Positions 36,115 through 38,483 of a stretch of 63,762 nucleotides of DNA are shown here, in pieces. Numbering within the stretch: position 1 is the stretch's first letter; each line of letters begins with the position of its first letter. Source of the DNA: a virus. Its lineage: Duplodnaviria; Heunggongvirae; Uroviricota; Caudoviricetes. The stretch lies in the IMG/VR virus record IMGVR_UViG_2571042862_000001. The stretch is one strand, 5' to 3'. The notes beneath the pieces were generated by a model. It ran no database searches and had not been told where the DNA came from. It was given only the letters and a program-made list of their open reading frames with translations. The translations under genes and the position numbers were made by a program.

Positions 36115-37485
36115 GTGCTAATGTCTGCATCCCCTCTTGAATCCATGCCAAATTCCCTTAGTGCAGAACAAGCTGTACTTGGTGGCTTAATGCTTGATAA
36201 CTGCCGCTGGGATGAAGTTGCAGATCGTATAGTTGCTGATGATTTTTATACCAGTGCTCATCGTGAAATTTTCAGTGAGATGGAGAGGTTATTAAGTCAT
36301 GGCAAACCGATTGATTTGATAACACTTGCTGAAGCACTTGAACAGAACGGTAAATTAGAACGCGCCGGTGGTTTTGCGTACCTTGCGGAGATGTCAAAGA
36401 ACACGCCCAGCGCGGCAAATATTTGTGCTTATGCGGATATCGTTCGTGAACGCGCGGTTGTTCGTGAAATGATTTCCGTCGCAAATGAAATAGCCGAAGC
36501 TGGATATGCGCAGGATGGCAGGGGCAGCAATGAATTGCTGGATATGGCCGAGCGCCGCGTTTTTGAAATAGCTGAAAAACGACAAAAGAGCGGTAGTGGT
36601 CCAAAAGATATCGCCAGCATTCTCGATGCAACGGTATCTCGCATAGAAGAGTTGTTTCAGCGACCACATGATGGTGTAACGGGGCTTGATACGGGATTTA
36701 CCGATCTCAATAAGAAGACGGCAGGGCTTCAGCCGTCCGATCTCATCATTGTCGCCGCCCGCCCATCTATGGGGAAGACCACGTTTGCGATGAATCTCGT
36801 CGAAAATGCCGCAGTCCGTAACTATAAGCCCGTATTGGTTTTTAGCCTTGAGATGCCGAGCCACCAGCTGATGATGCGCTCACTGGCTTCTCTTGCACGC
36901 GTTGATCAGACTCGTATTCGAACAGGGCAACTTAACGACGAGGATTGGGCGCGGGTTTCTGGCGCAATGGGGATTCTGTTGGACAAGCAAAATATTTTTA
37001 TTGATGACTCAAGCGCCCTGACACCTACAGAGCTTCGTTCCCGCGCTCGTCGTGTTTATAAAGAAAATGGTGGTTTGAGCATGATTATGATCGACTACCT
37101 GCAACTTATGCGCGTCCCCGAGCTGCAAGATAACCGAACGCTGGAAATTGCCGAGATTTCTCGCTCACTGAAGGCTTTGGCGAAGGAATTACAAGTACCG
37201 GTGGTGGCATTGTCACAACTTAATCGTTCACTTGAACAGCGTGCGGACAAACGACCGGTAAATTCAGATTTACGTGAATCAGGAGCAATTGAGCAGGACG
37301 CAGACCTGATTATGTTTCTGTATCGCGACGAAGTTTATCACCCGGATAGCGAAATGAAGGGCATTGCCGAGGTAATTATCGGAAAGCAACGAAATGGCCC
37401 AATTGGCACGGTGAGATTGGCTTTTAACGGCCAATACTCACGGTTTGATAACTATGCCGGTGCTGACTGGCAAGAGGATTATTAA
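36115..37485 (+). CDS. ban: Ban, DnaB-family replicative helicase
   Basis: 456 aa; Walker A PSMGKTT, Walker B/DnaB motifs (LIMIDYLQLM, SQLNRSLEQR). Confidence 0.9.
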   Translation: MLMSASPLESMPNSLSAEQAVLGGLMLDNCRWDEVADRIVADDFYTSAHREIFSEMERLLSHGKPIDLITLAEALEQNGKLERAGGFAYLAEMSKNTPSAANICAYADIVRERAVVREMISVANEIAEAGYAQDGRGSNELLDMAERRVFEIAEKRQKSGSGPKDIASILDATVSRIEELFQRPHDGVTGLDTGFTDLNKKTAGLQPSDLIIVAARPSMGKTTFAMNLVENAAVRNYKPVLVFSLEMPSHQLMMRSLASLARVDQTRIRTGQLNDEDWARVSGAMGILLDKQNIFIDDSSALTPTELRSRARRVYKENGGLSMIMIDYLQLMRVPELQDNRTLEIAEISRSLKALAKELQVPVVALSQLNRSLEQRADKRPVNSDLRESGAIEQDADLIMFLYRDEVYHPDSEMKGIAEVIIGKQRNGPIGTVRLAFNGQYSRFDNYAGADWQEDY

Positions 37486-38483
37486 TGCAATGGAATGAGG
37501 AAAAGCCGATGAACATCCTGATCATTGGGCGAAAATTTGCAGCCATCAGTGATGTGAAAACATATACGGAAATGTGGTCTTATAACCTGGCCTGCGCCTT
37601 TAGTGAGGCAGGGGTAACATTGCAATACCATCGTCCATATTCCCCTGGCGTCGAAAGCCCCGAGGATTATGTTGAAGCTGTGTTGACTGCTGCGACAGCA
37701 TGTTCTGCGAAGGCCATTTTGGCACCAGGATTGAGGTATTTTACTACGGTACCCAGGGAAATAGGCATGCAACTGTGTCGCCGATTCTCTGGATGGGTAG
37801 CCCAGGTATATGACGGTTCTATGCTGGATTCGGCACCAGTCGATATTACTTTTACTGTCCGCGATGATACCTGGCGGTACCTGGATAATCCCGGTCGGTT
37901 AGAACGTCATAATCGCTTTAACAAACATGTTGGATGGGCAGCGAATCAGGAGCTGTTCCATCTGGAAACCAAAACGGACGATGTTCTGCGTATTTTTGTA
38001 GACCACGCTGCATTTGATGTTAGTGGTTTTGATCACTCCTTAAGTATCCTTATGAACCTTCAGCGTCTGACCGTTCCGTATGAGGCCAGAACGTTGACTG
38101 ATGACGGATTGGTTACCATTGATCCGGGGAATATTTCGGTAACTCCATACAGGCGGACGCCGGTGCCAGCAACCGAATTTGCAGCTGAATTGCGTAAGAG
38201 TGACGTTTTTATCGTTACGCATCCCGAAAGCCTTGGATTAACTGTACTTGAGGCGGCAATGTGCGGGGCGTTGGTATTAACGCCTCCCGATTGCCTTCCG
38301 CCAGATCGCCTGGCTTTGGTGAACCATATGGTTATCAAGTCGCGGATTGATTGGGATGAGGTTATTGCTCGCGTTGATCGCGTGAAAAATGCTGAAAAGG
38401 TCCAGTGTCACACCTGGTCGGCAATTGCGGAAAAGATGCTTGAGACGTTTATCACGCAGAAACCGTCGTGCGGTAACGGATAA
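37485..38483 (+). CDS. putative GT-B-type glycosyltransferase-like protein
   Basis: C-terminal HPESLGLTVLEAAMCGALVLTPP resembles the GT1/GT4 E-x7-E motif; start overlaps ban stop (TAATG). Confidence 0.4.
   Translation: MQWNEEKPMNILIIGRKFAAISDVKTYTEMWSYNLACAFSEAGVTLQYHRPYSPGVESPEDYVEAVLTAATACSAKAILAPGLRYFTTVPREIGMQLCRRFSGWVAQVYDGSMLDSAPVDITFTVRDDTWRYLDNPGRLERHNRFNKHVGWAANQELFHLETKTDDVLRIFVDHAAFDVSGFDHSLSILMNLQRLTVPYEARTLTDDGLVTIDPGNISVTPYRRTPVPATEFAAELRKSDVFIVTHPESLGLTVLEAAMCGALVLTPPDCLPPDRLALVNHMVIKSRIDWDEVIARVDRVKNAEKVQCHTWSAIAEKMLETFITQKPSCGNG

Follow-up and report, generated by a model that had tools for sequence, protein, structure and literature searches.

What is the function of the gene that follows the DnaB-type helicase gene ban in P1-type phages, and on which acceptor would its product act? 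We addressed this question in a stretch of viral DNA of 63,762 nucleotides (nt) (IMG/VR record IMGVR_UViG_2571042862_000001, hereafter the window), which belongs to a P1-type phage. An earlier note, based only on the letters of this DNA, had described an open reading frame (ORF) of 332 amino acids (aa) on the plus strand (37485-38483), had read it as a glycosyltransferase (GT) translationally coupled to ban, and had suggested that it modifies DNA or a host target. The ORF exists as described and corresponds to the gene dbn of phage P1 (99.5% nt identity) and to glt of phage P7 (97.4% nt identity), with the position after ban common to the window, P1 and P7. The GT label, which the earlier note re-derived from the raw sequence, is a 20-year-old annotation: Dbn is given as 'function unknown, possible glycosyltransferase' in the P1 record, Glt as 'putative glycosyltransferase' in P7, and the RefSeq name is 'glycosyltransferase family 4 protein', while the function of the corresponding PHROG family is listed as unknown. 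Our literature searches on dbn, on pmgO, pmgP and pmgQ, on MptE-like proteins in phages and on virion glycosylation returned no functional study of dbn or of the three pmg genes. The overall explanation that we put forward, with confidence a little short of even, is that Dbn is the optional fourth enzyme of a phage glycosylation cassette whose most probable acceptor is a virion protein.

Dbn is encoded by a real gene, because its copies are intact, are under purifying selection and have homologues in unrelated phages and in bacteria. All 80 full-length copies tested in viral contigs are intact, their comparison with the window copy returns a ratio of nonsynonymous to synonymous substitution rates (dN/dS) of 0.09-0.21, and homologues with 39-58% identity are found in unrelated phages and also in bacteria. 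In two Stenotrophomonas jumbo phages of 319 kb, CM1 and RAS14, there is a gene whose product resembles the C-terminal two-thirds of Dbn (28% identity, E 2e-19), detected as a sequence match at 67892-68455 of OP883945.1 and 91140-91703 of OP752703.1.

Profile and structure searches both supported the GT fold that had been proposed for this protein. The AlphaFold2 (AF2) model of Dbn, built on 18 homologues, has a predicted local distance difference test score (pLDDT) of 88 and a predicted template modelling score (pTM) of 0.86, and displays the GT-B architecture, with two facing Rossmann-like beta/alpha/beta domains and a C-terminal helix that crosses back. When the model was compared with the PDB using Foldseek, all of the top 50 matches had the GT-B fold and nearly all were glycosyltransferases, the highest ranks being mostly occupied by GT4 enzymes (GlgM, sucrose-phosphate synthase (SPS), PimB' and BshA; E 2e-9 to 1e-7). 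At the sequence level, where the evidence by itself is marginal, Pfam Glycos_transf_1 (PF00534) aligns only with residues 229-315 (E 1.5e-5, 25.0 bits), leaving the first half of the C-terminal domain unaligned, and some close homologues carry a precomputed match to the same family. The C-terminal segment that the earlier note had likened to the GT-B donor motif, HPESLGLTVLEAAMCGALVLTPP, lies inside this only matching stretch (38220-38288, plus strand) and includes the EX7E element, with E248 at 38226-28 and E256 at 38250-52. The Dbn family profile aligned EX7E with that of PimA and of the UDP-bound GT4 glucosyltransferase 8xsg (E 1.4e-4). A search of the PDB with the single sequence gave nothing useful, NCBIfam returned only trace matches to SPS and MshA, and the Rossmann matches to KtrA obtained with the first Dbn profile were spurious. 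From the model and the profiles we conclude that Dbn is very probably a GT-B glycosyltransferase.

The residues expected to form the donor site are strongly conserved across 66 family members, down to 22% identity. T245, H246, E248, S249, G251, E256 and G261 are invariant or nearly so, together with W290 and W311 (within EX7E, E256 is invariant and E248 is conserved in more than 90% of the sequences), and the same holds for D110, G150, W151, D173, H174, D183 and F242 elsewhere in the protein. The position of D173-H174 and D183 could indicate an unusual, possibly metal-assisted donor site. An exhaustive hidden Markov model search of 1.84 billion cluster representatives returned 377 Dbn relatives at E <= 1e-3, that is, 377 clusters at 50% identity, which reside mostly in temperate phages; metagenome and viral scans for relatives were dominated by P1-like contigs, and a profile search with a broad alignment in a collection of 5.8 billion sequences contributed hardly any more among the candidates considered. 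When the family was aligned by hhalign with a GT4 protein of the Brucella locus described below, only the EX7E region aligned. To judge from these comparisons, Dbn belongs to a small, distinct GT-B family that stands apart from the bulk of GT4 and is new in the searchable literature. One member of the family is fused to a methyltransferase domain.

To understand what such an enzyme might do, we looked at the genes that surround its homologues. Outside P1, the homologues in temperate phages do not adjoin a helicase gene; in at least six other phage lineages they adjoin, or share a block with, homologues of PmgO, PmgP and PmgQ. Dbn is accompanied by at least one Pmg partner in every one of the eight non-P1 phage loci that have enough flanking sequence. 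In a lambdoid phage (L143; L numbers designate the loci and contigs that we compared) and in the E. coli phage EP_H11 (L144), PmgO, PmgP, Dbn and PmgQ are contiguous in this order, with overlapping stops and starts. The genes are also contiguous, again with stops that overlap starts, in L004, in the order O-P-[small GT-A]-Dbn-Q, and in L008, in the order P-Dbn-Q-O, and all four lie within one block in two Citrobacter phage-plasmids (L003 and L142). L143, L144 and L008 have the PmgP homologue immediately 5' of that of Dbn, with one small ORF in between in L004, and outside P1 the next phage gene after Dbn is a homologue of pmgQ. Two contigs that are only very distantly related, L132 and L135, contain partial sets.

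In the window, the three pmg genes are located 6-8 kb downstream of dbn on the plus strand. The gene pmgO (44418-45080) encodes an MptE-like (DUF115) protein with a GxGPS motif, and pmgP (44978-45604) encodes a second protein, MptE/GT42-like, which is a weak paralog of the first and shares its motif. The Pfam MptE-like (DUF115) matches of PmgO and PmgP are below threshold, and a Pfam MptE-like match is found in 35 of the 39 PmgP homologues. The AF2 model of PmgP (pLDDT 93) has as its top structural match the archaeal pterin pyrophosphokinase (HPPK) MptE (prob 0.99), followed by the GT42 sialyltransferases Cst-I and Cst-II (prob 0.3-0.77), and some database records name PmgP homologues 'alpha-2,3-sialyltransferase'. 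PmgQ (46275-46976) is a GT-A protein in which the DxD(T) motif, in full Y-x-D-x-D-T, is invariant; its family profile matches the GT8 enzyme GlaT1 (6mw5) at E 1e-5 and, weakly, glycogenin and LgtC (E 0.6-1). P1 thus encodes four sugar-transferase-like proteins, three of which, PmgO, PmgP and PmgQ, are labelled 'putative morphogenetic function'. At the junction between pmgP and pmgQ, where other phages have Dbn or another tailoring enzyme, P1 has the metallophosphoesterase gene ppp (45586-46278, plus strand). Among the surrounding genes, pmgM (43676-44254) is weakly similar to VRR-NUC nucleases, Ppp is a calcineurin-like phosphoesterase, and a gene for a PNKP-type HAD phosphatase lies nearby (48613-49119).

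The cassette also exists without Dbn. PmgP homologues are much more numerous (at least 279 clusters), and the O-P-Q trio occurs in prophages of the Citrobacter rodentium, Pseudomonas, Alloalcanivorax and Gilvimarinus types where Dbn is missing. In or beside the slot of Dbn, these cassettes carry a Nucleotid_trans-like GT-A protein, a methyltransferase or a carbohydrate-type sulfotransferase (Sulfotransfer_2); cassettes with a variable extra enzyme were located at L146 5433-7835, L148 6609-8783, L155 5366-6932, L147 7001-9348 and L145 5402-7186, and we found no description of them in the searchable literature. Because a different enzyme accompanies PmgP in the cassettes that lack Dbn, gene order suggests that Dbn is one of several interchangeable tailoring enzymes, a pattern expected for lineage-specific glycan variation. 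The location of the cassette is recurrent, too. In three HK97-type prophage lineages (L146/L149, L148 and L155), it lies directly 3' of the major capsid protein gene and 5' of the head-completion genes; in L145/L151/L153 and L147/L156, it lies between the lysis genes and the terminase, and in L143 and L004, immediately upstream of the terminase. These capsid- and terminase-adjacent cassettes are tightly packed, with little room for a promoter or terminator of their own. Judged against the searchable literature, it is new that Dbn is an exchangeable part of a conserved PmgO-PmgP-PmgQ cassette, and so is the presence of this cassette beside capsid or terminase genes across many prophages of Proteobacteria.

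These observations suggest a scheme in which Dbn would be an active, soluble, retaining GT-B (GT4-like) enzyme that uses a nucleotide sugar made by the host. The core of the cassette would consist of PmgO and PmgP, as MptE/GT42-like enzymes resembling ulosonic-acid transferases, and of PmgQ, as a GT8-like GT-A hexosyltransferase. Dbn probably works with these three proteins, adding a single sugar that branches or extends the glycan started by them, and in the sister cassettes the GT-A transferase, methyltransferase or sulfotransferase found in its slot would be the tailoring enzyme. The ancestral order would be PmgO-PmgP-Dbn-PmgQ, from which dbn would have moved by about 6 kb in P1, to its place behind ban. 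The dbn unit and the pmgN-O-P-ppp-Q unit are both annotated as repressed by C1 (the C1 operator Oppp precedes pmgN-pmgO in the P1 record and is identical in sequence in the window), and because of this shared repression they would be switched on together after induction. Two C1-operator-like sites with three mismatches each lie on opposite strands, immediately after pmgQ and before pmgR (46978-46994 and 47027-47043), and may point to a regulatory boundary where the cassette ends.

The acceptor in this scheme would be a phage virion protein, as in virion O-glycosylation, since the cassettes lie in late structural operons and lack genes for export or for a flippase. A preprint (10.1101/2020.06.03.131540) describes Maf enzymes, which are MptE-like, as O-glycosylating proteins with nonulosonic acids and Kdo (3-deoxy-D-manno-octulosonic acid). 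In published P1 data, none of the genes dbn, pmgO, pmgP, ppp and pmgQ is needed to form plaques, and this fits an accessory decoration. Virion glycosylation is dispensable in mycobacteriophages. Because of the late-operon location, the lack of export genes, the Maf precedent and the dispensability of the five P1 genes, we tentatively favor a virion protein over an envelope glycan as the acceptor. We infer the enzyme activity, the donor, the order of the steps and above all this acceptor from observations that concern fold, motif, selection and neighborhood.

Several points weigh against this explanation, at the level of both the enzymes and the acceptor. Dbn is below the Pfam gathering cut-off for PF00534 (25.0 versus 26.4 bits), and the invariant D173-H174 and D183 appear to stand where the phosphate-binding Arg and Lys of GT4 enzymes are expected, as placed by secondary-structure register only. 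Foldseek supports a relationship with GT42 only weakly (E > 0.1), and the MptE-like fold includes a pterin pyrophosphokinase, so that PmgO and PmgP may not be glycosyltransferases. The P1 proteomics paper reports no virion glycosylation, although glycopeptides were not searched for there. In P1, dbn lies in the early ban operon, which is not an obviously late one, and sites within late operons are also classic insertion sites of morons, so location alone does not prove a role in the virion. Finally, the bacterial homologues of Dbn are found in loci for capsules or other polysaccharides, in which a lipid-linked glycan serves as acceptor.

This last point leads to the alternative that survives best, namely that Dbn and PmgO, PmgP and PmgQ remodel an envelope glycan of the host, such as the lipopolysaccharide (LPS) core, a Kdo-linked capsule or the enterobacterial common antigen. 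The LPS core is the receptor of P1, and its modification would mask the receptor, either excluding superinfection or keeping the progeny from adsorbing to debris; a host target, the second option of the earlier note, is possible. In E. coli, the LPS core is built by the same classes of enzymes, GT4, GT8 and WaaZ-like (WaaG, WaaO/R/J and WaaZ), and the carriers that we found all belong to the Proteobacteria or infect them. A capsule operon of the KpsM/KpsT/KpsE/KpsD type ends with the Dbn homologue in Colwellia (L005-7) and Brucella pseudogrignonensis (L010), directly 3' of an MptE-like (WaaZ_KDO_III-like) gene and after further GT4 genes, and in the polysaccharide cluster L140 two Dbn paralogs lie among GT2, methyltransferase, epimerase and GlmS genes. 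Because the pair is present in bacterial capsule loci, the association of MptE-like with Dbn-like proteins appears to be older than the phage cassette, with a role in polysaccharide synthesis in bacteria. In several prophages, however, the cassette is packed inside late head operons, with no room for its own promoter or terminator, and would therefore be expressed only shortly before lysis, when new LPS cannot replace that of the outer membrane. In addition, Dbn is structurally no closer to WaaG and WaaB than to other GT4 enzymes, and PmgO and PmgP do not match the WaaZ_KDO_III model. Taken together, we regard the remodelling of an envelope glycan as the main rival reading, yet as rather unlikely.

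Less probable still is that Dbn acts independently of the Pmg proteins, on a host protein, on a small molecule (a thiol, a pterin or a lipid precursor) or on the queuosine of tRNA. In P1, dbn is indeed physically separate from pmgOPQ, the top structural neighbors of Dbn include GT4 enzymes that act on small molecules (BshA, tetrahydrobiopterin glucosyltransferase and GlgM), and the ban operon of the window encodes tRNA-Asn(GUU) and tRNA-Tyr(GUA), which belong to the Q family. The constant company of at least one Pmg partner outside P1 argues against this independence, and the called neighbors of the homologues have no Pfam matches to thiol or pterin pathways (tRNA genes were not searched for there). 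The eukaryotic enzyme that forms mannosyl-queuosine is GT4-like, but glycosylation of Q-tRNAs by Dbn is unlikely, as the homologues elsewhere are accompanied by Pmg genes and adjoin those for capsid and terminase. Similarly, the matches of PmgP to MptE and of Dbn to tetrahydrobiopterin glucosyltransferase might evoke a pterin-glycoside pathway; we consider them a coincidence, given the flat structural ranking among GT4 enzymes.

It is very improbable that Dbn is a pseudoenzyme or a scaffold that has kept the GT-like fold and lost sugar transfer. The sub-threshold Pfam score with its unaligned half-domain, the apparent replacement of the canonical basic phosphate-binding residues by D173-H174 and D183, and the dispensability of dbn in the laboratory would all be compatible with such a loss. 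Yet the donor-site residues are kept throughout the 66 sequences, selection on the gene is strongly purifying, and the invariance or near-invariance of D173, H174 and D183 themselves suggests a functional, if unusual, active site.

The modification of DNA, which the earlier note had placed first, was not borne out. According to this idea, Dbn would attach a sugar to a modified base of P1 DNA and protect it from restriction, in the way of the T4 alpha- and beta-glucosyltransferases (AGT and BGT) or of the arabinosyl-5-hydroxycytosine (5hoC) transferases, and dbn shares its operon with the gene of a replicative helicase and lies about 4 kb from the DNA methyltransferase gene dmt. Digestion of P1 DNA with standard restriction enzymes is routine. 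In the well-studied cases of sugar-bearing bases, as described in PMC13326640, the sugar is transferred to a pyrimidine hydroxyl placed by a thymidylate-synthase homologue. A tblastn search with a ThyA query returned only chance hits in the window and 19 cassette loci, and the flanks of the cassette loci have no Pfam matches of the thymidylate-synthase type, in keeping with the absence of a base hydroxylase. In the structural ranking of Dbn, 23 GT4 or GT5 enzymes precede AGT, and BGT is outside the top 60. Experimental data point the same way: dbn is listed as nonessential in P1, and 24 of 29 P1 knockouts, drawn from a set to which the in-frame dbn deletion belongs, are non-essential and show no change in plaquing or antirestriction. 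Consistently, PADLOC has no defence-system family matching Dbn at E <= 1, and the neighbors of Dbn in other phages are transferases of the glycan type, encoded beside the capsid and the terminase, rather than genes of nucleotide metabolism or replication. DNA glycosylation is hence the least credible of the alternatives, with almost no probability left to it.

We then examined how dbn is expressed from the ban operon. The TAATG overlap reported by the earlier note is present (37483-37487), with the stop TAA of ban (36115-37485, plus strand) at 37483-85 and the first ATG of dbn at 37485-87, within a start region that extends over 37483-37511 on the plus strand. A Shine-Dalgarno (SD) sequence, AGAGGA (37473-78), lies 6 nt 5' of this ATG, and another, GAGG (37497-500), lies 8 nt 5' of a second ATG at 37509-11, which corresponds to Met9 (MNILIIG) and would give a protein of 324 aa. 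Met9 emerges as the conserved start from several observations. The non-P1 homologues all have their first Met aligned with it (MKILIIG), at the usual first strand of GT-B enzymes. The canonical TAATG junction is found in 106 P1-like contigs of our census; in 10 others, a 101-aa ORF lies precisely between the stop of ban and the Met9 codon, at which dbn starts behind AAGGAG. This ORF is found, for example, at 7699-8004 of L082 and also in L083, L084, L086, L087 and L091, and its stop overlaps the dbn ATG (ATGA). In one contig, codon 2 of the long form is a stop. Because of the start of the homologues, of the contigs with the insert and of this early stop, the first eight codons and the direct overlap with ban appear to be dispensable. 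The proposed coupling therefore stands as far as the overlap and a plausible co-transcription are concerned, but it is not kept in relatives; in the window, termination followed by re-initiation 24 nt downstream is possible.

The operon comprises tRNA genes, tciABC, ban and dbn, and its promoter carries the divalent C1 operator Oban (Op72; 33389-33416). A GC-rich hairpin flanked by an A-run and a T-run lies between the convergent dbn and gene 5 (38504-38530; dG -17.6 kcal/mol, z -4.1) and is likely a bidirectional intrinsic terminator that ends the ban-dbn operon. It was recovered by folding, as a simple terminator scan missed it when the stem absorbed the T-run. Because the genes form a single operon with a terminator after dbn, it is plausible that dbn and ban are transcribed together from the Oban promoter, which C1 controls. 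The promoter scan returned one sigma-70-like site inside ban (36848-36875, where P2dbn is annotated), fewer than expected by chance, and therefore provides no evidence for an internal promoter in ban. The tRNA genes of the operon (34072-34318 and 35759-35834) are Asn(GTT), Tyr(GTA), Thr(TGT) and a tRNA with a CAT anticodon; tRNA-Tyr is an addition in the phage of the window, as the P1 record has Asn, Thr and Ile2(CAT) only.

Upstream of the operon, the bifunctional DNA methyltransferase gene dmt (30357-33398) encodes 1013 aa in the window and 754 aa in reference P1. An intein occupies approximately 30585-31610 (Hint_2, LAGLIDADG_3 and intein-splicing matches, aa 77-418) and is inserted in motif IV of the C5-methylase (GGTP/C...VVHN/CQAFS). 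The same insertion is present in RCS47, in vB_EcoM-Ro157c2YLVW and in one P1 isolate, while the AF234172-type P1 record and L082 lack it. Intein aside, the segment of Dmt that separates its C5-methylase half from its Dam-like half (approximately 32000-32350) is shorter than, and unrelated in sequence to, that of other P1-like phages (L082 1248-3512), and may be a swapped target-recognition domain.

The proposal that Dbn tailors a glycan begun by the Pmg enzymes offers a concrete and testable account of five uncharacterised P1 genes (dbn, pmgO, pmgP, pmgQ and perhaps ppp), and covers hundreds of prophage homologues labelled '(n)orphogenetic protein'. A broader, more speculative and rather doubtful extension is that PmgO-PmgP-PmgQ with a swappable tailoring enzyme constitutes a widespread, unrecognised system of virion glycosylation in temperate phages of Proteobacteria. 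Our literature searches found no virion glycosylation of this kind for phages of Gram-negative bacteria. If the extension is true, the cassette would be the first such system outside actinobacteriophages; on capsid or tail proteins it would build a short O-glycan that varies among lineages and may begin with host-derived Kdo or another ulosonic acid from the host, and the classic transducing phage P1 would have glycosylated virions for which nobody has looked. A virion acceptor would imply virion glycosylation in phages of Gram-negative bacteria, with a bearing on immunogenicity, mucus binding and therapy; an LPS-core acceptor would represent a new strategy of receptor masking. As in-frame deletion mutants of P1 exist (Gonzales et al. 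2022), the virion and LPS readings can be quickly tested.

In comparison with known systems, the gene of the window does not differ in substance from P1 dbn, P7 glt and the RefSeq 'glycosyltransferase family 4 protein'. With the retaining GT-B enzymes of CAZy family GT4 (PimA, BshA, sucrose-phosphate synthase, GlgM and WaaG/WaaB), Dbn shares only 10-15% identity; its C-terminal domain is trimmed and just under the Pfam cut-off, and an Asp-His would replace the usual Gly-Arg after the first strand of this domain, as judged from the register. The T4 alpha-glucosyltransferase (GT72) and the HY126-type arabinosyl-5hoC transferases act on hydroxylated pyrimidines and are encoded among genes of nucleotide metabolism, whereas P1 and the other carriers of Dbn have no detectable thymidylate-synthase homologue and surround it with glycan transferases. 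PmgO and PmgP share a GxGPS nucleotide-binding motif and an MptE-like fold with the Maf flagellin glycosyltransferases, the GT42 Cst enzymes and WaaZ; unlike Maf, they are single-domain proteins of about 200 aa, below the Pfam cut-off and without the Maf acceptor-binding domains. Finally, and as a hypothesis only, the proposed mode of action of the cassette parallels the glycosylation of virions in actinobacteriophages, where phage GTs decorate capsid and tail-tube proteins: the enzyme families and the hosts are different, but both are non-essential sets of several GTs tied to structural genes.

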